A stretch of 64,000 bases of DNA from Tubulanus polymorphus (Eukaryota > Animalia > Nemertea), in assembly GCF_964204645.1 (NCBI RefSeq), contig NC_134034.1:8444962-8508961 (forward strand), written 5' to 3'. This document shows, piece by piece, positions 13,308-60,908 of this stretch (the first letter of the stretch is position 1; each line of letters opens with the position of its first letter). The notes beneath the pieces are model-generated. The model saw only the letters and a list, made by a program, of their open reading frames with translations. It searched no databases and was not told the DNA's origin. A program made the position numbers and the translations under genes.

Positions 13308-13310
13308 TTA

Positions 13311-14520: not shown

Positions 14521-14534
14521 TTATTTTACATATT

Positions 14535-40990: not shown

Positions 40991-41019
40991 GCATTAACAA
41001 AACCGACCCTTGCCCACGT

Positions 41020-41329
41020 GTCTTCAGTTTCTTATCATTATCTTTGTCAAAATAATCTTCACCTAAAATTCATATTTCTAATATAACTTTTAGATTTTAA
41101 ATGTTCTTTATAATATCTTTTATCACTGAATGATTGATTACATGACTGTTTCACATTTGTATGTTTCTTTTTCATTCTTTAATTCATCTAATTTAGTTTC
41201 TAATATATCATCTTTATATTCTAATTTCAATTTATTTTCTAAATGTGTTCTAGTTTCATTGTGTCTTGCTTTTTGAGATTTATCTATATCAATTTTACAT
41301 GTTGAACAGTAGTACTTATTTGCTTCCAT
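41020..41329 (-). pseudogene. pPolB: pPolB N-terminal fragment (zinc fingers)
   Basis: MEANKYYCSTCKIDIDKSQKARH; homology continues to ~41020. Confidence 0.88.
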
Positions 41330-41372
41330 TTTAATATCCAATTTTTTATTAAAATTGATTTTACATATTTTC

Positions 41373-41726
41373 TTATTCGAAATCTATTTCATGGTGCCCT
41401 TTTTCATACTTACCTTTGTATATGAAATAGAAATCACCAGAACATAATTCTTCTAAATCTTCACTTGATAATCTATGAAATCTATCTGGTAAATATGTTC
41501 TGAATTTATATGTATTTCCTTTTAATCCTTCATATTCTAAGTGGATAACTAATTTATCTCCATATTTGTTAGTAACTGTATCAATATTTGTAATTAGATA
41601 TTTCTTATGAATTGTTAATTCTGTAAACTTCTTAAATTTATAATCTACAGATTTTACATTTGTGATATCTTTAATTCTATCTAGAAATGATTTGTTGTTC
41701 TCACTGTGTACTTGTTTACTCTCCAT
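41373..41726 (-). CDS. MESKQV protein, possible OB-fold ssDNA-binding protein
   Basis: Intact homolog of 46584-46925; the function is inference only. Confidence 0.75.
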   Translation of the reverse strand: MESKQVHSENNKSFLDRIKDITNVKSVDYKFKKFTELTIHKKYLITNIDTVTNKYGDKLVIHLEYEGLKGNTYKFRTYLPDRFHRLSSEDLEELCSGDFYFIYKGKYEKGHHEIDFE

Positions 41727-42380
41727 TTTAATAACATATTTTTGATTAAAATAAATTATGGAAGTTATTAGATTAATATTTTAAGAGTAATAGGGAATAA
41801 GTTGTTCTAGATTAAAGGTTGAGAGGTTGAGTGAGTAGAAAATGAAAAATAAATTCGAGTGTGCGAGAATTTATTTACTCACATGTAAACTTACTTACAT
41901 GTAAATGCAGAATTAAATCAGAAATATATTTAAAGCCGAGGTATTCAACTAGACTCCAGTAGACAGAACCAGCAAGGCAGGCATTTTTCTTTTCTATCAA
42001 AATGATTTAACCTGAAATCATAAGATAGTAGAAGTCATCTGCATCTATATTCTACTGTAACTCTTTCGGCAACCACATACAATGTCCTTGGACGATTTGT
42101 GGATAATTTGTTATGTTATTTTGTATGATTATGTATACAGAATGTAAGATATATATATGGTTAAAAAAACAAACAACATCATCGGCACCAGTAGATTGTG
42201 TCAATCGCCGAGCGAGATCTCAGGGCTAGTTTAGTACCCCAATTTAGTCTCTTTTTTCGTTGTGTGATTGATGGCGGGTTCGCATCACACGCGCGCGGCA
42301 CCGGTATATTGCGCGATTCCCGGCGGAACCGCGCCATAGTGGGACACCGACAATACGTGCATGCAGTGCGGATAGCTATT

Positions 42381-42626
42381 AGTAATAGGGATAATGGGCT
42401 TTTTAGCTTGAAAGCCCATTATCCCTATTACTCTTAAAATATTCACATAAATGAATAACATTTAAATCATTGAACTTCTAAAATCAATTTTAATAAAAAA
42501 TATAGTATTAAAATGGAAGCAAATAAGTACTACTGCCCAACATGTAAGATAAGTATAGATAAATCCCAAAAAGCAAGACACAATAAAACTAAAACACATT
42601 TAGAGAATAAATTGAAACTAGAGTAT
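42381..42626 (+). repeat. Left TIR of copy B with a collapsed 52-bp hairpin (42381-42432)
   Basis: Reverse complement of 60278-60739 apart from the deleted hairpin centre. Confidence 0.92.
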
Positions 42627-45600
42627 AAAGATGATATATTAGAAACTAAATTAGATGAATTAAAGAATGAAAAAGAAACATACAAATGTGATACATGTAA
42701 TCAATCATTCAGTGATAAAAGATATTATAAAGAACATTTAAAATCTATAAGTCATATTAGAAATAAGAATAATGATATTTTAGGTGAAGATTATTTTGAT
42801 AATGATAACGATAAGAAACAGAAGACAATTAAAAGAATAAAAAATAAATTAAACAATAAAAGACCATACATGGAAGATGTAAGAAATTATATTAATTCAT
42901 TAGATAATAAAAAAGATATAGAGATAACCGAAGCATTTAAAAGTGATATTGGTCCAGCAGCTATCGAGTTTAAATTTCATAAAGGTAAAACAATAGAAGA
43001 AAATAAAAAACATTTAGAAAATATGAAAGAAATAATAAAAATAATTACAAACGTAGAATATCCAAAAATTAGTATATCAGTTAAAGTAAAAATAAAATCT
43101 GAAGATAAACCAATATATAATATAAATTCTCATTCACAACATATTATATCTAAACAACATATAGATGATAAATTAAATAAATGTTATAATGAAATAAAAA
43201 CTAAAATAGAAGAGAAATATTTTGAAGGATCTGGTTTAATATTTGATGAGATAATATTTATAACTTTACATGTTTATAACACAAAATATAATAAGTTAAC
43301 TAAATCAAAACCAATTGATGAAAATAATTTATCATATTATAAAGAACCAGATATTGAAGCATCAAGTTATATTAAACTACCATTTAAAACTAATGCTGTA
43401 ATAAATGTACAAAATGAAGATGATAAATGTTTTCTATGGACAATTATAAGTTGCTTACACCCAGTTGAAGATTATAAACAACATAGTTTTAGATTAACTC
43501 ATTATAAACAATTTGAAAATAATTATAAGATAGATAAGTATCCTGTTAGAATTAAAAATATTCCAAAAATAGAAAGAGATAATAATCTAAAAATAAATGT
43601 ATTTGATTTAATCAAATTACCAAATACAAAAGGAAATAATATTAAACATTATACATTAGAACCTTTATACCTATCAAAAGATTATGATTCAAATGATGTT
43701 ATAGATATACTATATTATGAGAATCATTATATGTGGATTAAACAAATAGATTTATTTTTTAGAACAGAAAATGATCACCATAAAATATATCTTTGTAGAA
43801 AATGTTTACATAGATTCAGTAATGAAAGTACATTATTAAATCATAAACAACTATGTGATAATCATGATTATTGTAAATTAGTTTTACCAAATGAAAAAGA
43901 TAAAATATTAGAATTCAAAAAATATGATTACAAAAATAAAGTACCATTTGTAATATATGGAGATTTTGAATCATTAAATAAAGAACTAACTGATCAAGAT
44001 AGAAAAGATATATATTATAAAAGAAAGAAATTAAATTCTAATGAAAATGATATAATTGATTATTCAGATCCTATAATAACAAATACTATTAAAAAGATCT
44101 ATCAAAGTGCTGCAGCTTTCGGGTTATATATTAAATCTAATTATCCAGAACTAATTGAAAGTGAATATTATAATTACAGAAATGAAAATGTTATCAATCA
44201 TTTTTGTGACTTATTAATTGAATATGAAATAAGATTTAGTAAATTATTGAATACAAATAAAGAAATACTTATGACAGAAGAAGATAAAGAAGAATTTGAG
44301 TTTGCAGATAAATGTTATTATTGTGAAAAGATATTTAATTATAAAGATAAAAAAGTAAGAGACCATGATCATTTGAATGGAAAGTTTAGAGGCGCTGCAC
44401 ATGAGAATTGTAACTTACAAGCTAAGAAAATTAACTTTGTACCAGTTATATTTCATAATCTATCAGGATATGATGCGCATTTATTCATCAAACAGTTATG
44501 TCATAAAATAGAAGAAATCAATAATGAAATAGAAATATTAAATTCAAATAGATCAAAAGATAAAATACCAACTTATAAATTTAGAATGTTAGCTAAAACA
44601 TCTGAGAATTATATATCATTCCAATTTGGTTGTCTAAGATTTATAGATTCATATAGATTTTTAAATAGTTCATTAGATAACTTATCAAAATCATTAGTTG
44701 ATGATGAATTAAAGATATTAAAAGAATATTACCCAAATAATGATGATTCTAAATTAATGAGATATAAAGGAGCGATTCCATATTCTTTCTATAAAAATCA
44801 TAATGATTTTAACATAACTGAATTATTAAAAGAACAATTCTATGACGAATTAAAAAATGAATATGTTAAAGATGAAGTCTATAATAGAACATTGAATATT
44901 TGGAATCATTTCAAAATAGAAAATCATGGGCAATTAGTAGATTTATATTTAAAATCAGATGTATTATTATTAACCGATATATTCGAAAGGTTTAGAGATG
45001 TAAACCTAAAATATTTCAATATTGATCCTTGTCATTGTTATTCATCACCAGGATTAACATGGGATTGTGGATTAAAATTTACAGATATAAAAATGGATTT
45101 GTTAACAAATATAGATCAATTACTATTATTTGAAAAATCTATAAGAGGAGGTGTTTCAGGTGTATTGGGTGATAGATATTTCAATGTAAATGATAATCCT
45201 GGATATAAATTATTATACATAGATGCAAATAATCTTTATGGTTGGGCAATGATGGAACCACAACCTTATGGGATGTTTGAAATAACTGAAGTTTTACAAC
45301 GTGAAAATAATGATGAATTTGATTGGAAGAAAAGAATTCTAGATATTGCAGATGATTCAGATATTGGTTACTTCTTTGTTGTAGACTTGGAATATCCTGA
45401 AAATATTAAATTCAAATCTAGAAATCTAGCTTACTGTCCCGAACATAAAACTGTAACTCATGAAGAATTATCAAATTACCAAAAAAGAATTAAACCCGAA
45501 AATCATATTCATACAGAAAAGTTAATGGTAACTCAAGAAGATAAATATAATTATGTAGTACATTATAGAATGTTGAAGTTTCATTTGAATCAAGGAATGG

Positions 45601-46555
45601 TATTAAAAAAAGTACATAGATATATTTCATTTAGTCAATCGAAGTGGTTAGAAAAATATATAGATTTTAACACCAAACAGAGAACTGAAGCTAAAACTGA
45701 TTTTGAGAAAGATTTCTTCAAGTTAATGAATAATGCATTCTATGGTAAGACTTGTGAAAATATTAGAAATAGAAATGATATTGAGTTAGTTAGTAATGGT
45801 AAAAGGATAAGGCATTTACAATCATATCCTAAGTTTATAGGTAACAGAATATTTGATGAAAATTTAGCTGCAGTTAAGATGAGAAGAACTTCAATGAAAT
45901 TTAATAAACCGATTTATGTTGGAGCTGCAGTTTTAGAATTATCAAAATTACTAATGTATAAATTTTACTATAATATACTACAACCCATCTTGGAGAAAAG
46001 AATATAGAAATCTTATATTTTGATACAGATTCTTACATATTAAAGATAAAAACTGATAACATAACAGATGATTTAAAAACATTAAAACATCATTTTGATT
46101 TCAGTAACTATCCTAAAAATCATGAATTGTTTAGCAATGATAATAAAAAAGTTCCTGGGAAGTTTAAGGATGAATTAGGTGGTGAAGAAATGATAGAGTT
46201 CATTGGTATTAGATCTAAAATGTGTTCATATAAAACCAAAACTCATGAAGCTAAAAAGTTAAAAGGAATTACCAAAAGCGTTGTTGAAAAGAATATTCAT
46301 TTTAAAGATTACATCAATTGTATATTTAATGAAGAAGTTAGAAAACATAAGATGAAATGTTTAAGATCTGAAGATCATGAAATGTATATTGAAGAGATAG
46401 AGAAGATAAGTTTGAATCCATTTGATGATAAAAGATATATTTTAGATGATGGAATTCATACAGTCGCCTATGGTTGCAATTTAGATGAATATATAAAATT
46501 CAAAAGAGAAGAAACAAAAGAAAATGAGATTATGAAAAGGATTCTAACGTGTTAA
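42513..46555 (+). pseudogene. pPolB: Protein-primed DNA polymerase B with N-terminal C2H2 fingers and an endonuclease VII-like insert; single frameshift near 45985
   Basis: 1164-aa ORF with Exo motifs YGDFES, FHNLSGYD and YLKSDV; CYYC..RDHDH..GKFRGAAH..CNL; motif A YIDANNLYG; motif B KLMNNAFYGK. Motif C YFDTDS lies in the next frame (~46015), continuing to 46555. Confidence 0.95.
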
Positions 46556-46583
46556 TCAATTTCAATAAAAATTTGTATAATAA

Positions 46584-46925
46584 ATGGAGAGTAAACAAGT
46601 ACACAGTGAATTCTTAGATAGAATTAAAGATACTTCAAGCGTCAAATCTGTAGATTATAAATTTAAAAAACTAACTGAGTTAACAATTCACAAGAAATAT
46701 TTAATTACTAACATTGAAACAATTACTAATAAATATGGAGATAAATTAGTAATTCATTTAGAATATGAAGGATTAAAAGGAAATACATATAAATTCAGAA
46801 CATATTTACCAGATAGATTTCATCGATTATCAAGTGAAGATCTAGAAGAATTATGTTCTGGAGATTTCTATTTCGTATACAAAGGTAAGAATGAAAAAGG
46901 GCACCATGAAATAGATTTCGAATAA
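46584..46925 (+). CDS. MESKQV protein, possible OB-fold ssDNA-binding protein
   Basis: Present in three copies; FKKL.EL...Y.I...NKYG...YLP.RF beta-rich pattern; adjacent to pPolB; function inferred. Confidence 0.75.
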   Translation: MESKQVHSEFLDRIKDTSSVKSVDYKFKKLTELTIHKKYLITNIETITNKYGDKLVIHLEYEGLKGNTYKFRTYLPDRFHRLSSEDLEELCSGDFYFVYKGKNEKGHHEIDFE

Positions 46926-46942
46926 GAAAATATGTAAAATAA

Positions 46943-47698
46943 ATGGTAGAATTAAAAGAATACAGAATATTTGTAGATTCTAGAAGGCTTACAAATTATA
47001 AATCACATAATTTACTAGTACAATTAGATAGAGAATTTAAGAATTGTGTAGATTTAAAATTAGTTAATATAAGTTTATGTAATTCTTTTTATAATATATC
47101 GGATAAAACTTTTGAACATAGAGGGTGTATGATTTATATGAGAAATAAAGATAAATGGTTTCATATATTTTTTAAACCAGGATTATATAATTTAGAATCA
47201 TTAGCGCAGGAAATTAATAGAAGAGCTCGGTTGAAAATCGGGGGCACTTCTGTATTTGAAATTAAATTTAATAAAATTGATAGTACTAATAAAATAAGAA
47301 TAAAGATATCTAATGAACAACATAAATTTATGGTAAACAAACCACTGGCTAAAATGTTAGGAATTAAACCGCTTACAGTTACTGGAAACGCAGAAGGCAG
47401 CTCAAATATAATACCTTTTACACACTTTTATATTTATTGCAATTTAATCGAGCCTACAAAAACTTTCGAAGCAACTAAAGAAACAATTTGTAGTTCTAGT
47501 ATACTAAATATTTTACCGCTAAAAAATGTTAAACAATTTGGAACTCAAATAAATTATTATTTAACAGAATGTGATTTTAAACCATGCATTCCTAAATTTA
47601 ATAATTTTAAATTAGAAATAAGAAATCATAATGGATACTTAATTGATTTAAATAACTTTCCTGTGATATATGAATTAGTTATAAGATGTAAAGAGTAA
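46943..47698 (+). CDS. mCP: Minor capsid (penton) protein, single jelly roll
   Basis: IFVDSR..., SFYNIS, PGLYN, FYIYCNLIEP, EIRNHNGYLIDLNN pattern typical of Polinton/virophage pentons. Confidence 0.8.
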   Translation: MVELKEYRIFVDSRRLTNYKSHNLLVQLDREFKNCVDLKLVNISLCNSFYNISDKTFEHRGCMIYMRNKDKWFHIFFKPGLYNLESLAQEINRRARLKIGGTSVFEIKFNKIDSTNKIRIKISNEQHKFMVNKPLAKMLGIKPLTVTGNAEGSSNIIPFTHFYIYCNLIEPTKTFEATKETICSSSILNILPLKNVKQFGTQINYYLTECDFKPCIPKFNNFKLEIRNHNGYLIDLNNFPVIYELVIRCKE

Positions 47699-47714
47699 TT
47701 TTTTCACTATATAA

Positions 47715-48068
47715 ATGAATATAACTGTCGGACCGAGTATATGTTTTGGATTTGATTTTAAACGTGAGAAAGAAATGAAATTTAACGTTAATGATGTAAT
47801 TACACATATTAAAAATATTGCATTTTCTAATGAAACAACATTTGAGTATGAAACAACAATTGATAAAGAAACTTTTAATGTAGAAAAGATTACTAATTTA
47901 ATTAGAGAATCTTTAAGATTTTATGAATTAGATGAAGATTTTATCATCGATGATATTAAAAAAATAATAATTGAAATATATGATAATCATAAAACTAGTA
48001 ATGAAATAAATGTTGAATTAATCATAAATAAGTTAACTAAATATTTTGAAGATAGTAATTTTTTTTGA
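47715..48068 (+). CDS. Hypothetical protein
   Basis: TAAATG start; homolog in copy A. Confidence 0.75.
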   Translation: MNITVGPSICFGFDFKREKEMKFNVNDVITHIKNIAFSNETTFEYETTIDKETFNVEKITNLIRESLRFYELDEDFIIDDIKKIIIEIYDNHKTSNEINVELIINKLTKYFEDSNFF

Positions 48069-48075
48069 TAAATAA

Positions 48076-48297
48076 ATGAGTGATAATAAGTGGATAATAA
48101 CTGGATTATATAATGGCGCATTACTATCAGTTGGAACTGTTGGTTATTCAATGGTATTAAAAAAAGTATTTAAAATGGGAAGTGTTAATGTTGATAGATT
48201 TGATATAAATGATATTTTAAAATTAACATTAGCAGTTACTTTATCTAATTTAACTATTGATTATTTAGAAAAACAAAAATATATTCCTCCCATATAA
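48076..48297 (+). CDS. Small hydrophobic protein
   Basis: TAAATG start; conserved in A; two hydrophobic segments. Confidence 0.8.
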   Translation: MSDNKWIITGLYNGALLSVGTVGYSMVLKKVFKMGSVNVDRFDINDILKLTLAVTLSNLTIDYLEKQKYIPPI

Positions 48298-48322
48298 ATG
48301 CATAATTTTTTTTGTTAAATAA

Positions 48323-48745
48323 ATGGCTTCTGCAATTATAACTATTATAGGATCGGCAATTGTTAACGCTTTAGCATTTACTGGTGGTGGTTATTTATTT
48401 AAACATATTGATAAAAATAGTTCATTAGGAGAACAAAGAAGACATAACTTAGCGTTAGAGAAATACAATAAAGCTGCAGAAGAATATAGAGAAAAGAGGC
48501 AAAACTATATGGATTACATCAATAAAGAATTATATGATCAGAAGATTTCACATAGAGATTTTCAATCAGTTGATGATGCAATGAGTTTATATAACACAGT
48601 AACAAATAAAGAAAAATTACATCTATACAAACCTAAATTATCAGATTATTATACCCCAAGTAAAGAACAACAGAAATATGAAATAATATGGATTTTAGGT
48701 GGAACTGTTATTGTTATATTTGTTGCTTATAAGTTTACTAATTAG
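48323..48745 (+). CDS. Conserved protein with Gly/Ala-rich hydrophobic N-terminus, coiled coil and C-terminal TM
   Basis: Intact in A and B. Confidence 0.85.
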   Translation: MASAIITIIGSAIVNALAFTGGGYLFKHIDKNSSLGEQRRHNLALEKYNKAAEEYREKRQNYMDYINKELYDQKISHRDFQSVDDAMSLYNTVTNKEKLHLYKPKLSDYYTPSKEQQKYEIIWILGGTVIVIFVAYKFTN

Positions 48746-48764
48746 TAATTTTTTTTCTAAATAA

Positions 48765-49199
48765 ATGGAAGTAAAAGTTGATAATATTGATATTATTCCT
48801 CATGATATAAATAAAACTAAATTAAAAACATATTTAGAAAAACAAATATTAGAATTTGAAAGTGACTTAAAGATAAAAAAGAAAAAATATTTAAAAAGTA
48901 AAATTATATATTATTTGATTATAAGTGGTTCGGTTACAATTAGTTCTGTAATAACATTTCTAGCAATATTCAGTCCATTAACACCTTTAGCTATATCAAT
49001 TGGTGTATTAGGATTAAGTTCAAGTGTTTTAACAGGTATAAGTTCAAAATTAAATATAAAAAGTAATAAAGAAAAAATTAAAACTAATATAAAAGAAATT
49101 AATAAATTAAAGAATACACTAGATTATATAATAAGTTTAAATGGTCATATAACAGTTGAAGAACAAGATAAATTATTAAAAGAATTAATAAATTATTAA
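48765..49199 (+). CDS. Two-TM membrane protein
   Basis: IIYYLIISGSVTISSVITFLAIF and LAISIGVLGLSSSVL helices. Confidence 0.82.
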   Translation: MEVKVDNIDIIPHDINKTKLKTYLEKQILEFESDLKIKKKKYLKSKIIYYLIISGSVTISSVITFLAIFSPLTPLAISIGVLGLSSSVLTGISSKLNIKSNKEKIKTNIKEINKLKNTLDYIISLNGHITVEEQDKLLKELINY

Positions 49200-49215
49200 T
49201 TTTTTAATTATATAA

Positions 49216-50517
49216 ATGGGGTTTCCAAAAGCTTTCCAATATAATAAATCAATTAAATATAATATTCCGGCAATAGATTTTAAGAAAAATATTACATATA
49301 AAAATATAGTTTTAAATTCATTAACTAATTTAGAAATTTATGTTAATGAATCACAGTTTTTTATTTCTAAAATGGAAAATATATTTAATACATATGAAGT
49401 TACTTTTACTCGAGATGAATATCATATATATAAAGTAAAATCTAATATGAAATATTGGCAGAATCAATTAAATTTTGCTGTTTATTGTGCAACAACAGGT
49501 TGTGGAATTAGTTGGAATGATCATTTAAATAACTTAGATAAAAATTTGAAGTATTCTGATTTAAAATTAATTCACACAATATTTAGATTTCACACATATT
49601 TTCAAATCAGAATAATATTAAATGAATTAGAATGTCCTTTACCCGGGTCTAAATATTTTAAAGAATTAGATAATAATATCAATATATCCAAGTTTTATAA
49701 AATATGTAATGAATTTAATATAAATATTAATTCCGATTTTAGAGCGCATGGTAAATTGCAAGGTGTTGTTGAAGAGTATGAAATAAAAAGAATTGATTAT
49801 ATGCATAGAATTTCAGCTTATCATAATTATAAAATTGATAATAATAATGGTTGGGTTAATTTCATTTTAGAAAATGGTGAAGGTTTTACAAAATCAGGTA
49901 TACAAAGAATAAATCAATCTATTAGAATTTATTTGATATGTATTTTAGGCGCTCAAGTTGAAACAAGATCCCCAATAATTGGAAATGATAACACTTCATT
50001 CGATGCGCAGAAACAGTTTAAAGTTTTATTTGAAGATTCCATACATGATGATAAAAATAGATAGATTCCAGAAAACATTATAAGATATCAAAATTATTTA
50101 GATAAATCACATATTAGATTAAATTATTGTATAGGCCCTAATCTATTAATTATTTCTAATGATTTAGTATTAAAGATGGGAAATATAATTGGTTATAATA
50201 ATCTAATTAAAACTGCAACAATAAATAATTCATTTGGATTAAATGATATAAATAAAAAGATTATTACTGCTCCAAAATTAATGGAAGGTGAAAAAAATAA
50301 AAAACACATTCAATCAACAGAAACTAAAACTAAGAATATTAAATTGGATAATGATTCTAAAATAAAAGATTACAATACATCAGAAAATAATAGAACTGAT
50401 AATATTCAACATGATATAATTAAACTAAATGATGATAATAAATCCCATGAAAATACTAAATTAGCTATAACTTGTATAGGAATTGTAATCGGAGGAATAT
50501 TATATTTTAAATTTTAA
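49216..50517 (+). pseudogene. Conserved ~430-aa Polinton protein with C-terminal TM; one in-frame TAG at 50062
   Basis: The 282-aa and 113-aa ORFs are in the same frame; copy A has TCG (Ser) at the stop position. Confidence 0.85.
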
Positions 50518-50533
50518 TTTTTTTATTATATAA

Positions 50534-51995
50534 ATGGATGAAGAAATTCCATTGGATGCTTTTGGTGACGCCCCTGGTATAAGTGATGAACCACAACCTG
50601 ATTTTAATGAAACTAATATTGATAATGATGATGAATCAGCATATAATTCTAATTTAGCAGATAGTGGTTCTAAAGCCCCATCAACAGATGAATTTGATAG
50701 AAGAACTAGATCGAGAATAAATCCTGAAAATGAAAATCAAGGTTTATCAAGACAAAATTTAGAAAATATTGGATTTATATATAAGTTTCAACATGTATTT
50801 AAAGATTCTGGATATAATATAAATAATAGAGGCGCCAGACTTTTAGTACAAGATTTAAAGTTTTTAGATGGTGAATATTATTATCGTGTGAAAGAAAAAT
50901 CGGATTATTATATTAATATCTCTAATAAAAATCAAGACAAAATAGTAGCAAAATCAACTTTGCTTAAGTCTGACTCATTACTATCTAGAATTAAAAGAAT
51001 AAGTAATAGTAATGAAATAAAAGATGTAACACAAGAAGAAATTATTAAAAATAGAAAATTATTTAAACAAAGAATTAATGAATTATTTGAAACAATCAAA
51101 GATAATCCAGAAACAGAAACAACTTCTGAACAGAATATAACTTCCAAAACTAGTAAACTTAAATCAAACACTGAAGTTCAAACTGAAAAACTTTTACCGA
51201 ATGGATTACTTGATGCAACAGATCAAGAAATAGAAGCTTTAAGTATGTTTTCTAAAAAAACAATTAGAGAAATAATAAGTATACGAAATGATGCCGATAA
51301 AATTGCTCGCGAAAAACATATTAGATATAATAAAATTAAACCTTTAGAAAATAAATTATTTGACACCAGAAAAGAAATAGAACAATTAAAATTAGATAGA
51401 GAATTTAAAGTTATTGAAGAAATTGAATTTAAAAAAAGAAATGCATATTTAGAAAAAGAAATTGATGATTTAGAATATAACATAGAATTTCAGAAAGAAA
51501 AAATGAAATTATTATTAAAATCATATGATTATTGTATTAATAGATTAAAAGTTGTTGTTAAAGAGTTAATACTAAAACCAAATTCTGACATATCACTAAA
51601 AGATAGAATAAAATTATTATTTAAGTTTGAAGGAATAACAGTTCTTTCAATTCTAACTAGCTGTAACTATGTTATTTACAACAATTGGTTTAGCAATATC
51701 AAATTCACTGAAATCTACTCCTATTCCTACTCCCAATAAACCAGATAAACCTCCAGGTAATAATTCTATACAAGATAAAGTTAAGGATGGTTTAAAGAAA
51801 TTAGCAAAATATTTATGGGAACTATCAAAGAAATCTGCTGCAGCATTGCCAGGAGTTATTGCATCAATTGTTGGTTTTATATTGAAATCTGCTGGGAATA
51901 TTCTTAACTTTGCTGCTGAACATATTATTTTATTTTTAATTACAGTTGTAAGTGCTATTATTTTTGGTTTAGTTAATATGATTAAAAATAAATAA
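50534..51995 (+). pseudogene. Acidic/coiled-coil protein with C-terminal TM helices; 1-nt insertion near 51657
   Basis: CTAACTAGCTGT versus CTAACAGCTGT in copy A joins the 401-aa and 108-aa ORFs. Confidence 0.82.
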
Positions 51996-52015
51996 TTAAT
52001 TTTTTTGTTAAATAA

Positions 52016-53263
52016 ATGAGTGGGAGTTATATAAGTCCTTCGAAGAATCATAGAATATCTAATGCTATTAAAGCAGAAAGATCACATCATATAATTACTC
52101 ATAACCCTTCAAATATTAATCCCGATGAAACTTTATATGTTAGAATTCCTAGATTAACACAAAATACTTTTTATGTTCCAAATAGTATTTATTTATCAGC
52201 TGATATAAAAGTAATCGGTAATAATAATAATTATGTTGTTGATAATGTTGGAAGATATTTGATTAAAAAGTTAACAATAAAGATTGGTCCGGAAACGGTT
52301 TTCTCATTAGATGATTATAATTTATTTATGCATTATAAAGATTTATGGTTAACTAAAGAAAATAGAAATAATATGATATTTCAGGGTATTCAATCAGAAA
52401 ACCAAAATAAATTAAGATCAGAAGCTAATAGCGCAATATTAACTAATGATGTAGATAAATTGATAAAAAGTATATATGGAAACAAATATAAAATTCCATT
52501 AGACTTTGAATTGATAAATAATAATGCACCTTTATATAAATACGCAATTCAAGAAGATATTATATTTGAGATAACATTTGCTCCTGTAAATGAAATTGTA
52601 TTATCTAGCGTTGTTAAAGATATGAGTTATAAATTATCGAATATATGTTTAGAATATGATACAGTAACTGATGAAAATATTTCAAGTATAATTCAAACTC
52701 AATACAATCAAGGATTTTCATTATTATATGATTATATTGATAAATTTAAAACTGTAACTATTAATGCAAATGATGAAATAATTAATGAGAATATTAACTT
52801 CCCTAGAAGATCTATTAAAGGTATATTAATATTTTTTACCATTGGAACGTATACTAATGGCGCAATAAATGTTGATAATTATTATAATCCAGAAATAACA
52901 AAAGTAGAAATAACTATCGAAGGAATAGCGAATAAAATATTCTGTCAAGGAATGAGAATGATTGATCAATGGGTAGAAATTAAAAAACATTTTATGAATG
53001 AAAAAGTGAAATCATCTGAAAATTGTAACATTAATCAAATTGATTATTATACCGGTAATAAATATGCATTATGGTTAGATTTTAGAACAACTGAATATAA
53101 TTCATTACATGGTTCTGGAAAAAAACTACAGAACACTAAAGATGGAATACAATTATTCATGACAAAGAATAAAGGAATCAAAAATTTTAAAATGCACATT
53201 TATATTATATCTGACGCGCAATTAAATATTGTAAATTCACAATTAGATAGTGTTATGTATTAA
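52016..53263 (+). CDS. MCP: Major capsid protein (probable double jelly roll)
   Basis: 415 aa, beta-rich; ITHNPS..P.ETLYVRIP, LSNICLEYD, INFPRRSIKGIL, YYNPEITKVEITIEG; size, position and high A/B conservation. Confidence 0.78.
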   Translation: MSGSYISPSKNHRISNAIKAERSHHIITHNPSNINPDETLYVRIPRLTQNTFYVPNSIYLSADIKVIGNNNNYVVDNVGRYLIKKLTIKIGPETVFSLDDYNLFMHYKDLWLTKENRNNMIFQGIQSENQNKLRSEANSAILTNDVDKLIKSIYGNKYKIPLDFELINNNAPLYKYAIQEDIIFEITFAPVNEIVLSSVVKDMSYKLSNICLEYDTVTDENISSIIQTQYNQGFSLLYDYIDKFKTVTINANDEIINENINFPRRSIKGILIFFTIGTYTNGAINVDNYYNPEITKVEITIEGIANKIFCQGMRMIDQWVEIKKHFMNEKVKSSENCNINQIDYYTGNKYALWLDFRTTEYNSLHGSGKKLQNTKDGIQLFMTKNKGIKNFKMHIYIISDAQLNIVNSQLDSVMY

Positions 53264-53295
53264 AATTTTAACTTTAATAAAAAATCTTATATTAA

Positions 53296-54534
53296 ATGGA
53301 AGGTGGAATATATGAAATACAAACTTCAAGTGAAATGATATCAGATATATATTATATATTACCTTATGATGAATACAGTAAGTATTTTGGAGATTACTTT
53401 AATCAATTCAAATATAGAATAAGTAAAATAGATAAGAATATTGAAACAAAAATAGAAGATAATATTGAACCTAAAATAGAAGATAAGAATGAAACTAAAA
53501 TAGAAGATAAGAATGATATTGAATATAAAATAGAAGATGATATTGAACCTAAAATAGAAGATAAGAATGATATTGAATATAAAATAGAAGATAAGAATGA
53601 TATTGAATATAAAATAGAAGATGTAACAGGATATGTATCTTATAATATACCCTCTACAACATATGATATTGAATCAAAAAAGACAAATGAAAAATATTGT
53701 GACGTATGTAAACAGTATAAAAGTTATAAGAATTGGGCAACTCATCTTAATTCACTCAAGCATAAGAAAAATAAGAATAAGATTTTAAATGAATTGAATA
53801 ATGATAGTGAAATTGATAATGATAATGTTAAAGAAGATAAATATTGTGAAGAATGTGATAAATATATAAGTCGTAGTAATTTTTCAAAGCATAAATTAAC
53901 ACAGATACATTTGGATAATATAGAAAGAAATATATGTGAAAAGTGTAATGTTGTTGTATTACCTAAAGATAGAATTAAACATGATAATTCTTTTGAACAT
54001 ACAATAAAAGCTGCTGATTTAAATATCCTTTATAGAGCACCAAGTGCATTTTTTGATATCGAAAATAATGATCATAGGAAATTATATAGATCAATTTTTA
54101 TCGATTATGTAAGAAATAATCCAAAACAAGTATTATCAGATCTAAAAACTCGTCGGACGATTATAAAAATTTATCTAAATAATTATTGGAGTATACATTA
54201 TTTCATAAAATTTAAAAATATAGATTTTTTAACAGAATTGAAAAAAGTTGCTGCTAATGATAATATAAGTGATAACTTTGATGAAATAATTCAATACTAA
54301 AGTTATGAAGATTTTTCACAGGATGTTATAAATAAAATAAGAAATGAAGCAAAAAATGAATATAAAAATATAAGTGAAGACAAATTAAACCAATATATTT
54401 ATTTAACTTATGAATTCTGGGTTAAGGGTTTGAATAGTAATGGTTATCATTTTAAACTGTTAGGTGAAAGAAGATCGCAAGAATTAAGAGATGCATGGAG
54501 CAAATTGTTTTCAGAATTAGAATCAGAAAAGTAA
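53296..54534 (+). pseudogene. Zinc-finger protein with KIEDKNDIEY repeats; TAA at 54298 followed by 77 more in-frame codons
   Basis: CDVC..H..H, CEEC..H..H and CEKC..H..H; the frame stays open to TAA at 54532-54534. Confidence 0.72.
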
Positions 54535-54554
54535 TTTAAAATATTAATATAATA

Positions 54555-55172
54555 CCCTTTGTGTCTTTATTGTCTTTAGTAGGTTTAGTACTTTTAGTAC
54601 ATAAAGAATAAATCTTTATTTTATAAGTAGTGAATAAAATTATTTTTAAAACTACTAAACTACTAAAGACAATAAAGACATAAATATATATATAACACTG
54701 TTTCAATAATTATATTTATTCATCTGATGGATTTTATATATTACTGTTTCAATAATTAAATCTATTTATCACACATATTTATTATATATATCATAGATTT
54801 ATCATTTATAAAAATTATTTATATATTTTATTTTTCTAAGTACTAATTAAATAAAGATTTATTCTTTATGTACTAAAAGTACTAAAAGTACTAAAGATAA
54901 TAAAGACATAACAAACACATATAGATGTAATAAATATCATAAATTTATTTATCTTACAGATTTATTATATATATTTGATTCAGTAATGATAAATCTATGT
55001 GTGTTTGTTGTGTCTTTATTATCTTTAGTAGTTTAGTAGTTCTATTTTATTTTATTCACTACTAATAAAATAAAGATTTATTCTTTATGTACTAAAAGTA
55101 CTAAACTACTAAAGATAATAAAGACATTAGGGGAGGTATATAATACATATCTAATACATATCTAATACATAG
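54555..55172. repeat. Central nested inverted repeats at the convergence point of copy B
   Basis: TGTCTTTATT.TCTTTAGTAG.TTTAGTAC arms at ~54562 and 55011; inverse arms at ~54651, 54851 and 55068; TAATACATATC repeats next to the ATPase stop. Confidence 0.85.
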
Positions 55173-55184
55173 GTATACAAATAG

Positions 55185-55799
55185 TTATTTTATAAATTTA
55201 TATTCATATGGAAATTGTAATCTCATAAGTAATTTGGAACCTTTATCATTCTTTAATTTATTCATATATTCATCATGTAATTCAGTAGGTATAATTTGAT
55301 TTTCTTCTAATGATTGTTGCATAGATTTTCTATCTTTGTTGTAGAATAAAACTAGAAATCTTATATTCTCTCTAAAGTCTTTCACAATTGAATTATATTT
55401 CTGATTTAAAACCCATGTTGTTATCCCAAAATGTCTACCAGAGAAAGCTAAATAACATAACTCACTTTCTCTAATTTTAGAATCATGTAAATTTGCGCAA
55501 TCATCAATAATAAATAATGTTTTAGATCCTTTATAAATATCTAATGCAATTTTTATACAATTATCTAAATTATCTTTTACTGTTTTAGAATTTAATATAA
55601 TAAACTTTTTATCTTTAAAAACTATATCTCTATTATACGTTTCATTCATTTCATAAGTTGGGCAGAATAATATTATATTATCGAAATGATTTTTATAAAT
55701 AGTTTCTAATAAATCTAATATGAAGTGTGTTTTACCACAATTTGTAACTCCAGTTATTAACATATTATGTGGTTCAAATATAAACAAATCTTTATTCAT
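55185..55799 (-). CDS. A32/FtsK-like genome packaging ATPase
   Basis: GVTNCGKT Walker A, LFIIDD Walker B, SGRH arginine finger, LNQ and FREN motifs. Confidence 0.92.
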   Translation of the reverse strand: MNKDLFIFEPHNMLITGVTNCGKTHFILDLLETIYKNHFDNIILFCPTYEMNETYNRDIVFKDKKFIILNSKTVKDNLDNCIKIALDIYKGSKTLFIIDDCANLHDSKIRESELCYLAFSGRHFGITTWVLNQKYNSIVKDFRENIRFLVLFYNKDRKSMQQSLEENQIIPTELHDEYMNKLKNDKGSKLLMRLQFPYEYKFIK

Positions 55800-56877
55800 T
55801 TATTCTTTTAATTTTACTAGATAAAATCCATTCATTAAATTTATCATCATATCCTTTATATTTCACCAAAGAATATTTCTTACCGCGTAATGTTTTTGTT
55901 TTCAATACTTTTTCTATTTTGTATTCTATTTCATCTGGATTTGGTACTAATGATAATTCTTGTTCATAAAAATAACCTAATATTTCTTCATCTTTTAAAT
56001 CAAACAATTTATAAACAAATGGTTTAGTTAATATTATCTTTTTAATTTTAAATATTTCTTCTGTAAAATTAGGGGTATAACCTTTATAAAATGTTTTTCG
56101 ATATTTAGAAATTCTAACATGTTGTCCTATTTTAAATTTAGGTTCTCCAAAATCATGTGTAACAAATGCTCCATATAAATTATTCCAAACTATTTCTGAA
56201 TTTTCTTCTTTTCTAGCTTGTATAGGTTTCATATTTATAGAACTATGTTTAGAATTATTATAACCTTTCACTAAATCATCTAACACATCGATATATTTAT
56301 ATGTTTCATTAGCGGTGAAATATTTCCACATTCTAGTTTTCAATGTTTTATTAAATCTTTCTATAACAGATGCTTTTTTATCTGAATGTGTTGAAAAATA
56401 TTCTACATCGTTATCAATTAATAGTTTTTTGAAATGTTTGTTATAAAATTCTTTACCTTCATCAAATTGTATTTTATCTCGGATAGCTTCTTTAAATATT
56501 AATTTGAAAGAATTTGTAACTTCTATACCAGTTTAATTTTTAATCGGGATACTCCATGCGTATCTACTGAATATATCTATAACATTTAGTATCCAAAAAT
56601 ATCCTTTGTTATATTCTTCTAAGTTTTTCATATCAATTAAATCAGCTTGCCATTGTTGGTCAATATATGAAACCATTACTTTTCTTGTTAAATATTTTTT
56701 ATCCATCTTTTTATGAATTTGATATGTGGGTTGATTTTGTAACCATGATTTTAATTCACTATATTTCATATTGCTATTATCAGATTTAATTTTATTCCAT
56801 AATTCCGAAACACTTGAATATGACACTTCACTTTCTGGGTTGTAATATAACGCTCTTAAATATTGTTCTTTTTTCAT
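55792..56877 (-). pseudogene. INT: rve integrase with chromodomain; single frameshift near 56535
   Basis: DDE motifs QADLID, FDEGKEF and IERFN; C-terminal chromodomain. Confidence 0.93.
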
Positions 56878-56883
56878 CTTATT

Positions 56884-57270
56884 TTAATCCATTAATAATA
56901 TTTTAGATTTATTTTCATTTGATTTATGATTTGACTTATTTTCTGGTATGATAGGTTTATTGTCATTGGAATCATCTTTATCATCAGATTTGAATTTATG
57001 TTTATATATTACACCGGATAATATAATAACTGTTACTAATCCAATTGTAATATATAATTTATAATTACTTCCAGCATTAGAAGAATTAGATGGATTATTA
57101 TTTGAATCAATACCACCGTGTGGGTGCTGTACGGCACCATCAGGTGATTCATTTATATCAGTTAATTTCTTTTTCTTAGCTTTTTTTAATTCTGATGATC
57201 TTTTACCTAATTCTCTTGCCCATTTAATTTGTTTCTCTGATCTAGCCTTTTTCTTAACTCCATCACTCAT
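56884..57270 (-). CDS. Small basic TM protein
   Basis: Homologs in A and C. Confidence 0.8.
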   Translation of the reverse strand: MSDGVKKKARSEKQIKWARELGKRSSELKKAKKKKLTDINESPDGAVQHPHGGIDSNNNPSNSSNAGSNYKLYITIGLVTVIILSGVIYKHKFKSDDKDDSNDNKPIIPENKSNHKSNENKSKILLMD

Positions 57271-57865
57271 TTATTTTAGTTAATTTTTGTTCTGATTCAT
57301 TTTCTGTTTCACTGTTTGGTTGTAGTACATCTGTTTCGTTCTTACCTGATTTATATTCCATAGGTTTGATGTTCGAAAATGTAATGACACCAGTAGAAAT
57401 TAATGTCATAACCGATCCTAATTGAAATGAAGCATATCCAACCCATTTTTGTAATTCAGTCATAACTAAATAGTCATTTTTCAAATCATTATATAATTTA
57501 TTTTCATCATCAATTGGTATTAACTGGTTACATAACTTAGAATAACATTTTACAATACCATCTGAAATAGAATCATTTATTCTAGCTAATCGAGCTTCTT
57601 CATAAATCTTAAAATATTTTATTACTTTTTCTTTATTCATATTATCTAATTCTTGAAAAGTTATTGTTTTACCAATAAACTCTTTAGTTTTTCCACTCGC
57701 AATCAATAGTTCTAGATGATGCTTACAATATAAATAGTATTCATAATCTATATTGTTATTAACTTGAATAGAATTAGAAACAACTGTATCTTTATTATCA
57801 CTAATACCTAAATCATCTAATGTCTTTTCAATATCAATACTATTCTTATTAGATTTCTTTGACAT
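57263..57865 (-). CDS. Conserved Polinton hypothetical protein
   Basis: 200 aa, intact in B and C. Confidence 0.85.
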   Translation of the reverse strand: MSKKSNKNSIDIEKTLDDLGISDNKDTVVSNSIQVNNNIDYEYYLYCKHHLELLIASGKTKEFIGKTITFQELDNMNKEKVIKYFKIYEEARLARINDSISDGIVKCYSKLCNQLIPIDDENKLYNDLKNDYLVMTELQKWVGYASFQLGSVMTLISTGVITFSNIKPMEYKSGKNETDVLQPNSETENESEQKLTKINE

Positions 57866-58140
57866 TTATATTAGAGAAAAAAAGCAAAAAGAATATTATA
57901 AGTATTCTTCAAATGATACTAGTATCTCTTTAGGTTAATACTAAATTGACTAGGTTAGTTAAAGTTAAAGAATTTCTATTCAAATCTATTCAAAATCTAT
58001 TCAATCTAATGTCAATTAGAATTACCAAAAGAAAATATTAAAAATATAACAGAATTCACTAGCTAGTTGAAGTTATTGTTTTTTTATTATATTTTATTTA
58101 AATTAGGATTTAGATTATCTCACTACTATTGTCTATCTAT

Positions 58141-59260
58141 TAGGAGCAGTAATTATAACTGTCCAGATAAGTCATTTCGGATCCTCGATAATAAATCCTT
58201 AACTGAAAATAAATTCAAAGAAACGACTGGTGGAATTACTATTTCATAAACACATATATTTATTATGTAAATTTTAGCGATCGATAATAGAACAATGGAG
58301 AACAATAGAAATGCGGTCCAATCGGACCGGTTATTGCGCAATACACAGTTATATTTTTATTCTGTAAACTACAACATTCACACATAGAAATGTAAACAAT
58401 ACAATACAGAACAACCGCCGCCATTAACATCGATCAATAATAGAACAATGGAGAACAATAGAAATGCGGTTCAATAGGACCGGTTATTGCGCAATACACA
58501 GTTAACAGTAAACAATATAATATTAAAACAGATATATACAATCGAGATTACATTTTTGATATCTATATTACAAAGACCTTCAGTGTTATAATTTATAATT
58601 TTGTCCAGAATTCTTTAATTACTGGATTGTTTCCAATCATTTCTTCAATTTCTAGTAAATATCTGACTACTTCACTAAATGCTAATCCTAATATTTTGAA
58701 TTTTTCATATTTTATTAATCTACCTACTCTTCTCAGTTTTCTTTCAAAACCGGCACTGATATCTCCACTCATTTTCTTAGTTTTCGATTATTTGAGTCCC
58801 AACAGCAATTTAAGTCGCGTTGCTGGTAATTTTGGTAATTGTAGTTCGCGCGGTAATTGTTTATTATGTATTACATCACTCAGAATTTTCACCATTTCTT
58901 GATGATAGTCCAAATGTTCTTATAATTTTGTGAAGTTTGTTCGTCAATTACGAGTTTCATCCTCCATTTCTATTGATTCCTGAGTTTCACTATCCAGTAG
59001 CATCGTTCCTCATCCGTTGGTTGGCTTAGAATTTCTGGTTGATCTCTGTATTCCATTTTAATCTAAAAGATGTCGTGAAAATGAATTACTGTACTTAAAT
59101 ATGTTTAAAGGTTTCCCTACTTCATAATATATGTACTTACATTTAGATCTAGAACTGTAAACTGTGTTTTGAGAGAGAATATCCAATACGTACTATGTAT
59201 GTGAAAGTTGATTTCTAACTGCCGACGTGGCGCACGTTCGACCAAACTAATTACTTCTGC
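58141..59260. other. Copy-B-specific ~1.1-kb insertion downstream of HNH
   Basis: Flanks CACT.CTATTGT and ACAGATGTTC are near-contiguous in copy C (~62163-62200); absent from A; contains a ~70-bp direct repeat (58279-58351, 58432-58504). Confidence 0.7.
58593..59056 (-). pseudogene. Decayed cargo gene of unknown function
   Basis: TAAAATGGAA start; MEYRDQPEILSQPTDEERCYW... then, after stops and a frameshift, ...FERKLRRVGRLIKYEKFKILGLAFSEVVRYLLEIEEMIGNNPVIKEFWTKL*. Confidence 0.55.
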
Positions 59261-59394
59261 ACAGATGTTCTTTATGATGAAGTTAATTAATTCTTTAGAA
59301 TTGAAAAAAAGATATATTTGGCAACATATGTTTTAGTAGTAAGCAAAAGCTATGTATTATATACATACAAAGCTCAAATAGAATTGCCAGCTTT

Positions 59395-60060
59395 CTAACC
59401 ACTGATCAAAACCTCAGAATGCGGTTGATTCTGTGAAATACTATTCCATAATTCAACAAATGTCTTTGCTTTATCCAGTTGATCTAAATATAACTGTAAA
59501 TCTAGTTTATTGGATTTAATTATGTTTTCCTTCTTTTCTAAAGGTCTTAGATTCTTCCAATTCCAAATAAGTTTTTTATTGTATTCATCATTCATGTCAA
59601 ATTTAGAAATCGGCAACACATGATCAATATGAAAGTATTCACCATAATTATCTATATTCATTTTATCGTCGAATTGATATATTATCCATGATTTTAAGAA
59701 TTCATGTGAACAACCCAATAAATTAGATAGTGTTTTTGAATGCGTTTCTTTGTTGAATAATTGTGTTAATCTAGACCGTAAACATTGTTTCAATCTAAAA
59801 TTAAGATCTGTTTGATATCTTTCTCTCATATATTCTGCCATATAATAATTATAATGTTCTATATTATATTCTCGGTATTGTTTGGTGTATAGTTTAAAAC
59901 AAGTTTTACAGCAATATTGAAAACCATCTTTGCTAATCTTACGCTTACTAAATTCTGTTAATGATTTATCTAATTCACATTTAGAACACTTCTTGTAGTA
60001 TATGTTTATAACGCCAGTGTTATTTGTAATATTGATAATTTGTGGTTGTTCTGGTTCCAT
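59395..60060 (-). CDS. HNH-type endonuclease with zinc finger
   Basis: HIDHVLPIS..WKNLRPLEKKEN..KSNK; intact. Confidence 0.82.
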   Translation of the reverse strand: MEPEQPQIINITNNTGVINIYYKKCSKCELDKSLTEFSKRKISKDGFQYCCKTCFKLYTKQYREYNIEHYNYYMAEYMRERYQTDLNFRLKQCLRSRLTQLFNKETHSKTLSNLLGCSHEFLKSWIIYQFDDKMNIDNYGEYFHIDHVLPISKFDMNDEYNKKLIWNWKNLRPLEKKENIIKSNKLDLQLYLDQLDKAKTFVELWNSISQNQPHSEVLISG

Positions 60061-60139
60061 TTATTATACGTATTTTTTTACTAAATTGGTTAATAATTTT
60101 AGAATCCTCTTCCATTTCTTCGACCAACGTCATCCTTTT

Positions 60140-60391
60140 TCATTCCTCGCTGCTTTTGATAAGTTGTTTCGATTCCTTGATATCAAATTCCTCAACGTAT
60201 TGTTCATTATTTGGATCATTATTCCATAATTCAATAAATTTCTTTCCCTTTGTTAACTGTTCTGAATATAACTGTAAATATTCTAGTTTCAATTTATTCT
60301 CTAAATGTGTTTTAGTTTTATTGTGTCTTGCTTTTTGGGATTTATCTATACTTATCTTACATGTTGGGCAGTAGTATTTATTTGCTTCCAT
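60140..60391 (-). CDS. Chimeric mini-ORF: pPolB first zinc finger fused to an HNH-like C-terminal tail
   Basis: First 38 aa identical to pPolB of B; LQLYSEQLTKGKKFIELWNNDPNNEQYVE matches the HNH C-terminus of A. Confidence 0.6.
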   Translation of the reverse strand: MEANKYYCPTCKISIDKSQKARHNKTKTHLENKLKLEYLQLYSEQLTKGKKFIELWNNDPNNEQYVEEFDIKESKQLIKSSEE

Positions 60392-60739
60392 TTTAATACT
60401 ATATTTTTTATTAAAATTGATTTTAGAAGTTCAATGATTTAAATGTTATTCATTTATGTGAATATTTTAAGAGTAATAGGGATAATGGGCTTTCAAGCTA
60501 AAGGTTGAACGTGCGGGTGAGTAAAAATGAAAAAACATAAAAATAATTACAATTTCTACTTGAATTAGGAGTGAAACTCATAAAATGAAAAATTAATTCG
60601 AGCGTGTGAAAATTAATTTTTCATTTTTATGAGTTTTGCGAGTAATTCAAGTAGAAATTGTAATTATTTTTATGTTTTTTCATTTTTTACGAGCTCGACC
60701 GTTCGACCTTTGGCTTGAAAGCCCATTATCCCTATTACT
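60278..60739 (-). repeat. Right TIR of copy B, including a 268-bp terminal palindrome (60472-60739)
   Basis: AGTAATAGGGATAATGGGCTTTCAAG...CTTGAAAGCCCATTATCCCTATTACT. Confidence 0.93.
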
Positions 60740-60884
60740 GCTATTTATTCATTTATTTACTACAGGATAGTAACACGCTCGAAATTTCTATCAAACATTT
60801 TCTTTCATAAAACACGATCATGCATCTTTTTGCGGCCCTGCAACGAAAGTCGTATATATGCCTTTCGAACTTACGTATCGACAT

Positions 60885-60908
60885 CCTAACCCTAACCCTA
60901 ACTCTAAC
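60885..60908. repeat. Short interstitial (CCCTAA)n tract
   Basis: CCTAACCCTAACCCTAACTCTAAC. Confidence 0.7.

Follow-up and report, generated by a model that had tools for sequence, protein, structure and literature searches.

What does a long hairpin do at the end of a linear mobile element that encodes a protein-primed DNA polymerase, and how is it kept? To our knowledge, replication of Polinton/Maverick elements has never been shown experimentally, and the accepted model rests on gene content and on plain inverted repeats. The stretch analyzed here, 64,000 nt of contig NC_134034.1 of the nemertean Tubulanus polymorphus (from here: the window), contains a Polinton, copy B, together with related elements A, C and D. 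The right ends of copies A and B, and in part that of D, are long imperfect palindromes. We report that the two arms stay paired across changes of stem sequence and that their transition mismatches are nearly all G.T pairs on one strand, the one ending 3′ at the terminus. We propose, with a probability of roughly 40%, that the right-end palindrome acts as a self-contained "panhandle", in which folding of the 3′ strand would restore a duplex origin for protein-primed synthesis and would template repair of the tip.

Architecture of the terminal palindromes

The following features define the two ends of copy B and their counterparts in A, in D and in three metagenome contigs with related polymerases (L001, L002 and L005).

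42381-60739: Polinton copy B, tips AGTA...TACT, with the 6-bp target-site duplication (TSD) GCTATT on both sides
42375-42380: left GCTATT TSD of copy B, read from the sequence
60740-60745: right GCTATT TSD of copy B
60472-60739, + strand: right terminal palindrome of copy B, 268 nt, AGTA...TACT, in the order inner arm, loop, outer arm
15482-15630, + strand: right terminal palindrome of copy A, 149 nt; −43.7 kcal/mol, z −12.1; tandem motif at 15586-15599 (− strand)
41786-41882, + strand: truncated terminal palindrome of D; inner arm and loop followed by some 15 nt of outer arm, beyond which the DNA is unrelated
42381-42432, + strand: left terminus of copy B, a 52-nt remnant with 22 pairs; −22.3 kcal/mol, z −10.9
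60597-60614, + strand: apical loop of copy B, 18 nt, CpG-rich; counterparts in the same orientation at 15547-15564 (A) and 41854-41871 (D)
60574-60637, + strand: nested apical palindromic unit, 64 nt; a minority of family members have 3 letters instead
60695-60708, − strand: outer-arm tandem motif GGTCGA-AC-GGTCGA, also in A, D, L001, L002 and L005
60503-60508, + strand: inner-arm motif copy GGTTGA, which on the + strand pairs with the outer-arm TCGACC through a T.G wobble

As single-stranded DNA, 60472-60739 folds into a single hairpin of 120 pairs, including 6 G.T pairs (−106.3 kcal/mol, z −25.4; 0 of 200 shuffles as good). The + strand of this interval ends 3′ at the terminus, and the predicted hairpin is blunt. 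Sequencing reads of run X6 span the interval without a gap. An earlier reading of the window made from its letters (from here: the sequence-only reading) had described the AGT...ACT palindromes of B, A and D; their coordinates proved exact and the folds were confirmed. It placed a palindrome at the outermost part of each terminal inverted repeat (TIR) but had missed that the left end of copy B retains no more than a 52-nt remnant. There, the interior including motif and loop is gone, the junction shows CTTT microhomology, and the inner arm from 42402 matches 60502 onward at 99%. By its sequence, this end looks like a central deletion of a once-full palindrome. The inner boundary lies at the same element sequence in A, D and both ends of B. 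Complete palindromes available for comparison numbered three (B-right, A-right and L001-left), and the window has no left end with a full palindrome. Rfam and tRNA scans matched nothing.

The loop, which the sequence-only reading had called conserved, is common to A, B and D; its pattern has 3 matches in the 64 kb, all on the + strand, with 0.00 expected, and position 60610 is G in 98% of reads, as in A and D. The "bulge" GAGCTCGAC (60691-60699), called conserved as well, is not significant alone (3 matches at ≤1 mismatch; 30 of 100 shuffles equal) but overlaps the inner copy of the outer-arm tandem motif and is part of that motif. The pattern GGTYGA-NN-GGTYGA has 4 matches at ≤1 mismatch in the 64 kb, 3 of them at these termini, with 0.27 expected. 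The motif lies about 30 nt from the tip. Among the polymorphisms listed in reads, none falls on its 12 hexamer positions and only the spacer position 60701 varies, with further variation at the stem positions flanking the motif.

Outer arms carry GGTCGA (GGGCGA in L001), and the inner arms of A, B, D, L001 and L002 mostly GGTTGA; in the inner arm of D both hexamers read GGTTGA (41817-41830). All 3 complete palindromes have the motif T.G (U.G) pair at alignment columns 44/243. An alignment of both arms of B, A and L001, the inner arms of D and L002 and the single arm of L005 gives a common plan, which runs from an AGTA tip through about 16 variable bases and a short block rich in T to GGTYGA-NN-GGTYGA(G) and an A-rich stretch. 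The additional ~60 nt that each arm of B seems to carry form a single nested unit at the apex, and the loop motif of the next lower level recurs in its loop. The joint 60573>60638, which skips this unit, occurs in 94 reads, 92 of them with identical 3 letters between, and also in contigs of runs X1 and X2. The loop pattern had 0 matches in IMG/VR viral contigs; the 88 matches of the tandem motif there were single and scattered and were taken as chance.

Copy number and boundaries were assessed with run X6, which carries the same species label and of which 12% was read; depth is the sum of both read orientations.

Element body: depth about 780-1135
Repeat adjoining the palindrome: depth about 1600
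Inner tip: depth about 1600
Palindrome interior: depth 415-940
Outer 56 nt: depth 2220-2920
Least-covered flank bins: depth 9-18

Copies at ≥90% likeness number in the dozens, a rough figure given the uncertain single-copy depth. At 60739/60740, 1366 + 427 X6 reads depart into unlike flanks (agreement 0.35); therefore, many insertions end exactly at ...TACT. The extra depth of the outer arm stems from subfamilies that share tip and motif and diverge inside (311 reads behind 60509, 798 before 60683).

The palindrome is part of the mobile unit, because it is bracketed by the TSD and by an empty-site contig of run X1 (same species), which fuses the left flank to 60740 onward with one GCTATT. Foldback elements and miniature inverted-repeat transposable elements (MITEs) are similar in that short AGT...ACT units consist almost wholly of two inverted termini. 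However, such elements have TSDs of their own, whereas none was found around the palindromes themselves (A, B and D examined), their inner boundary is constant, and no class among the six listed (each ≥311 reads) leaves at the inner edge, 60472, against a depth of about 1600. Solo palindromes account for at most about one end in six (~16%). The scattering of these hairpins as independent MITEs, considered beforehand as the observation that would speak against a structure belonging to Polintons, was thus not what we found; the palindrome is attached to the repeat.

Pairing, strand bias and relatives

The stems of A and B differ, as noted before, and each still pairs. Alignment A2 places 37 pairs without gaps (28 basal and 9 in the motif), of whose cells 90.2% pair, some of the unpaired cells arising from a partial L002 row that is misaligned in its outer columns. 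Changes on both sides affect 17 of the 28 basal pairs. None of 500 shuffles reached either value, and controls with slid partners gave 2-4 two-sided changes as opposed to 17. Seven of the 9 motif pairs never vary, and none changes on both sides.

The differences between the A and B stems are mostly transversions plus two mirrored 1-nt indels. Such changes cannot pass through wobble intermediates and point to templated copying between the arms, which fits the deep A-B changes at least as well as stepwise compensation. Of the covariation proposed by the sequence-only reading, the keeping of pairing is supported, and the deep part between A and B is weakened. Within the family, 7 stem pairs carry matching complementary polymorphisms among those listed in the X6 reads, as judged by frequencies, not haplotypes; for example, 60482 A>G (61%) goes with 60729 T>C (53%), and 60594 T>A (91%) is matched by 60615 A>T (89%). 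Five one-sided transitions (60498 excess, 60530, 60550, 60690 and 60714) all yield G.T on the + strand. Read frequencies of the outer arm pool more subfamilies than those of the inner arm.

On the 3′-ending strand, transition mismatches outside the loops comprise 18 G.T/T.G versus 1 A.C (B 6:0, A 5:1, L001 7:0; two-sided p = 7.6e-05). The ratio is 10:1 for isolated mismatches only (p = 0.012) and 9:1 with the shared motif site counted once (p = 0.021). The bias toward G-T pairs on the outward-reading strand, first noticed in the sequence-only reading, is therefore upheld by the counts. Folding also favours this strand: its gain over the complement amounts to 7.2, 6.6 and 0.1 kcal/mol under DNA parameters, and to 22, 20 and 14 kcal/mol under RNA parameters. 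Because X6 variation listed over the whole 401-nt stretch is strand-symmetric (C>T 9, G>A 7, A>G 8, T>C 7), the G.T bias is tied to pairing. These data point to the strand ending 3′ at the terminus as the one that would fold.

The palindrome also has one orientation. The loop lies on the + strand in 3 of 3 right ends, and A, B, D, L001 and L002 share one arm asymmetry; both fit a fold that is never inverted. No inversion class (flip/flop) is listed in the reads, and strand-change joints within the palindrome comprise only 5, 5 and 6 reads at a depth of ~650-2,800, a loose bound. A hairpin telomere of the pox- or parvovirus type, to which the termini had been likened, predicts that flip and flop forms both occur, and this was not seen.

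Metagenome contigs scanned with a polymerase alignment yielded 220 confirmed stretches, of which 80 were kept and 6 were close (58-76% identity). L001 (polymerase 76% identical at the amino acid level) has a 257-nt palindrome, AGTAATGG...CCATTACT, at 190-446, between a GC-richer flank and the element. It folds at −69.5 kcal/mol (z −13.7); its stems differ from those of B and A and its loop is a GC-rich mini-palindrome. The contig of L002 (76%) begins inside such a palindrome, which finishes with ...CTATTACT. The relatives found at 22 IMG/VR loci (identity ≤37%) and at 21 loci of prokaryote metagenome-assembled genomes (≤36%) were set aside as too distant for homologous ends. To judge from these sequences, the terminal palindrome belongs to a subclade, in which it is retained despite sequence turnover, and is not universal.

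Candidate functions of the folded end

Under the panhandle reading, strand-displacement replication by the protein-primed polymerase would release a single strand, whose 3′ end would snap back on the inner arm. This would locally rebuild the duplex terminus including the motif, and synthesis of the complementary strand would start at the fold by protein priming, so that two distant repeats need not meet. An eroded tip, with its recessed 3′ end, would be refilled using the inner arm as a spare copy. Such refilling is proposed as the reason why the outermost ~27 bp change fast and in concert and why asymmetry persists further in. An element protein, possibly PolB through its zinc-finger N-terminus, is predicted to bind the tandem motif. 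Consistent with the panhandle, the palindrome lies within the target duplication, the outer arm has the canonical layout of an AGTA tip, about 25 variable bp and then the tandem motif, the inner arm is an inverted copy with GGTTGA, and L001 and L002 keep the architecture despite other stem and loop sequences. The earlier suggestion of a selected single-stranded DNA or RNA structure survives as the best reading in its first part, a selected single-strand structure, given the kept pairing and the one-strand mismatches; its second part, mimicry of helper telomeres, finds no link to a helper virus.

Several observations weigh against this proposal. The 52-nt, motif-less left end of copy B means that the palindrome was dispensable for at least one integration or for persistence, although its loss there may be a deletion after insertion. 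In L005 (61% amino acid identity), AGTA tip, tandem motif and A-rich stretch lie in a single arm without a fold (z −1.8). These two cases argue that the palindrome is helpful and not essential, or that those ends are crippled. The distant elements L084 and L100 have complete terminal repeats and no tip palindrome. No pile-up of molecule ends is listed in the read layouts, in which only integrated copies are seen. The fixed T.G pair of the motif indicates that arm copying stops short of the motif, so that repair, if real, would be limited to the tip. The sample is small, consisting of 3 complete palindromes plus read frequencies without haplotypes. Finally, the G.T excess could be an error signature of fold-back synthesis, through G.T mispairs, rather than a trace of selection.

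A bolder form of the proposal holds that a PolB-encoding Polinton lineage made each end of its genome a self-folding, self-repairing single-strand origin, half-way between adenovirus-type priming and parvovirus-type hairpins, with G.T wobbles due to selection and GGTCGA read by the zinc fingers of PolB. We consider this tentative and, taken as a whole, rather unlikely.

Among the alternatives, the one that survives best is a functionless by-product: the inner arm would have arisen by snap-back synthesis or terminus joining, would be homogenized by slippage or gene conversion, and would be trimmed by the host. The transversions and mirrored indels between A and B agree with this, as do apex length changes that come as whole palindromic units, the centre-deleted left end of copy B with its microhomology, and the lack of a palindrome in L005, L084 and L100. 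G.T mispairs are the commonest polymerase error, and fold-back copying would then give the same strand bias. Accidental annealing is named as an alternative in a 2026 preprint (bioRxiv 10.64898/2026.07.28.741278). However, the architecture survives across lineages that share no stem or loop sequence, and loop and motif are conserved while the stems vary. Moreover, the constant arm asymmetry and the motif T.G pair argue that the arms are not simply re-copied, and subfamily polymorphisms are compensated pairs with wobble intermediates on one strand only. We therefore regard an origin without function as unlikely, if less so than the explanations that follow.

Direct extension of the folded 3′ end, as in the rolling hairpin of parvoviruses, could act beside or instead of protein priming. 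The 3′-terminal base is paired in the blunt hairpin on the wobble-bearing strand, the two HNH-type nuclease domains of the element might nick, and hairpin priming is proposed for virophage and Polinton-like virus palindromes in the same preprint (bioRxiv 10.64898/2026.07.28.741278), where, however, palindromes occur mainly with replicons lacking PolB. Against self-priming, hairpin transfer inverts the palindrome, while here loop and asymmetry have one orientation in all three copies and strand-change joints are as rare as given above. In addition, the protein-primed polymerase is retained, and Pfam scans of 10 + 13 frames of copy B (one frame in both; frames of at least 70 amino acids) matched no HUH Rep/NS1 nickase family. 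Because of the single loop orientation and the lack of a HUH nickase in these scans, mechanisms of the parvo- or poxvirus type are disfavoured, and self-priming appears improbable.

A third explanation needs no folding: the inverted duplication would merely double the sites in double-stranded DNA to which the integrase, the packaging ATPase or some origin-binding protein attaches. In its favour, the motif is conserved and terminus-specific, and subterminal repeated binding sites are usual in DNA transposons. We consider this quite improbable, as it leaves the one-strand wobbles and the sustained pairing of non-motif stem positions unexplained and as the inner motif copy is the degenerate one. 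Least probable is an RNA hairpin processed to small RNAs or a mimic of a large DNA virus telomere, for which the larger energy gain of the wobble strand with RNA parameters and the AT-richness of the element (23% GC) in a host region of 31-42% GC could be adduced, but against which stand inward-reading genes at both ends with no outward gene, the lack of an Rfam family, the 0 loop matches among IMG/VR viral contigs and the lack of pox-type flip and flop forms.

The element, its surroundings and known replicons

Copy B is a Polinton/Maverick, as the earlier reading had assumed, because homologues of its PolB carry PF03175 and because it encodes an A32-type ATPase and a chromodomain integrase. 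Its main features inside the terminal palindromes are as follows.

60192-60471, − strand: body of the right TIR, mirroring 42433-42715; 225 nt at 99%, 314 nt at 86.6%
42513-46007, + strand: protein-primed PolB, 1164 amino acids, homologues with PF03175, as in Polintons/Mavericks
55185-55799, − strand: A32-like packaging ATPase, PF04665, E = 6e-13
55792-56883, − strand: integrase with C-terminal chromodomain; weak matches to rve (E = 0.0069) and rve_3 (E = 0.037), and a Chromo match
59395-60060, − strand: stand-alone HNH nuclease, 221 amino acids, PHROG 1035 (E = 7e-18), with a conserved DH...N...N motif

The TIRs of copy B (225 nt at 99%), its 5′-AG...CT-3′ tips and its 6-bp TSD are those of a Polinton/Maverick. 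The right-end body repeat contains an inverted copy of the start of the polymerase gene; this 5′ part encodes C2H2-like zinc fingers at the N-terminus of PolB. GC content is 21-29% in the element copies and 31-42% in the host stretch. The PolB frame has 3505 homologues at E ≤ 0.001 among 7988 scored, and PF03175 occurs on several of 120 listed; the copy B protein itself did not match PF03175 in the Pfam scan. A match of the frame to PF02945 lies just under the curated cut-off (23.1 vs 23.6 bits). Residues 588-636 form an HNH/endonuclease-VII-like insert, and many homologues list PF02945; intein families are listed for some homologues.

The chromodomain of the integrase was also matched in PDB, and the integrase core of copy B is broken by one in-frame stop in the translation. 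The 99% likeness of its repeats and its long, unbroken polymerase frame make copy B look young despite this stop; if the copy moved recently, it was probably mobilised in trans. Capsid proteins and a protease were not recognised in copy B by Pfam or PHROGs. The HNH nuclease gene, without a match in PDB, is the final gene before the right end in copy B and follows the polymerase gene in copy A and in the metagenome contig L003. A functional tie between the hairpin and this adjoining "endonuclease VII" gene was dropped, the product being a generic HNH nuclease encoded beside the polymerase in A and L003.

Copy A is degraded and extends to 15630; its middle segment of 13.5 kb has the opposite orientation to that of copy B (4428-14913 in A vs 46554-60101 in B). 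L003, with its HNH gene at most 3.6 kb after the polymerase gene, matches the arrangement of copy A, and going by gene order, copy B seems to carry the inverted form. Many joints between opposite strands in the reads fit both arrangements being common. Element D (41019-41882) is a deletion derivative and element C (61299 onward) is 5′-truncated.

Other structured sequences were noted in the window. A telomere-like run, CCTAACCCTAACCCTAAC..., lies at 60876-60905, 140 nt outside the right end of copy B and just upstream of copy C. The flank that holds it is itself repetitive in reads (depth 200-800), and 60899 and 60903 are C in ~98% of reads, so that the run is more regular in other copies. Directly after the right terminus of copy A, in TA-rich DNA, 15637-15723 is a palindromic MITE-like unit of ~87 bp with ~27-bp inverted ends, unrelated in sequence to the Polinton tip. 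The inverted repeats 33866-34251 and 39392-39777 (386 nt, 97% alike, 5.1 kb apart) contain ~73-bp sub-repeats with a GGGAGGAATATTCCTCCC core and probably belong to another transposon with structured ends. Tandem arrays in the host part occupy 29590-30763, 18105-18581 and 32439-32854, with periods of 46, 53 and 52 bp, respectively.

Palindromes also occur among more distant relatives. L007 (42% identity) has a 381-nt foldback (z −6.5) at 645-1025, some 1 kb upstream of the polymerase match; on sequence grounds, this may be a second lineage with an inverted tip duplication; it starts with AGTGA..., and its basal stem of ~30 bp consists of tandem GACGAAC-type repeats. In L090 (IMG/VR, distant PolB, 32%), 4657-4840 is a 184-nt palindrome with two 51-nt direct sub-repeats, situated mid-contig between genes, ~140 nt upstream of a long polymerase frame; it may be a joined terminus. 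In L055, 2286-2466 is a 181-nt palindrome, 93% self-complementary, within the part of a distant relative that codes for the polymerase, and resembles a foldback insertion. The palindrome of L051 was rejected as an inverted coding duplication; it came from a self-palindrome scan of 102 loci and the window, the rest of which was mostly AT-rich noise.

Known replicons resemble these ends in part. Adenoviruses share the protein-primed PolB, the TIRs and a displaced strand that regains a duplex origin; they use panhandles, and a damaged end can thereby be repaired from the other copy. Their duplex forms between two distant repeats, whereas here each end would form it alone within 150-270 nt. Parvoviruses such as adeno-associated virus are alike in their bulged, imperfect terminal palindromes (100-250 nt), which stand complete at the open end in integrated or duplex forms, and in a 3′ end able to fold back, but they need a HUH nickase and show flip/flop forms, neither of which was found here. 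In Streptomyces, linear replicons are protein-capped, and patching of their ends requires the 3′ strand to fold via terminal palindromes. They set a precedent for the joint occurrence of protein priming and foldable ends, differing in being bacterial, in having several short palindromes in place of one long one, in other proteins and in the lack of TSD integration. In light of the Streptomyces and adenovirus cases, the premise of the sequence-only reading that protein-primed replicons need only TIRs is too simple.

Within the same virus supergroup, endogenous virophages and Polinton-like viruses of Halocafeteria seosinensis are similar. These are integrase-bearing and, according to bioRxiv 10.64898/2026.07.28.741278, have 52-nt palindromes at the TIR extremity next to the TSD, with a proposed hairpin role. 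There, the palindromes occur preferentially without protein-primed PolB, whereas those described here are 149-268 nt long, imperfect and asymmetric, with a tandem motif and one-strand wobbles, in PolB-encoding elements. Bidnaviruses, with a Polinton-derived PolB, have repeats that form no hairpins (PMC4061559). Terminal hairpins of poxviruses and asfarviruses are likewise AT-rich and incompletely paired, with extrahelical bases (PMC11296320), but their ends are closed, exist in two inverted forms and are resolved from concatemer junctions, whereas the ends here are open at the TSD and have one orientation. Searches of the full-text literature, supplements excluded, brought up no account of PolB-encoding Polintons whose termini are long imperfect palindromes with wobbles on one strand.

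The tips of this young, multi-copy PolB family thus carry a fold that is conserved in architecture, not in sequence, and that has a strand-specific signature. As such palindromes break short-read assemblies (the L002 contig ends in one), annotation may often miss the ends of Polintons. The signature names the strand and the intermediate to seek, a displaced 3′ end, as well as a short candidate protein-binding motif, and the replication model is thereby open to direct test with oligonucleotides and purified protein. The finding also bears on the kinship of hairpin-ended and protein-primed replicons.

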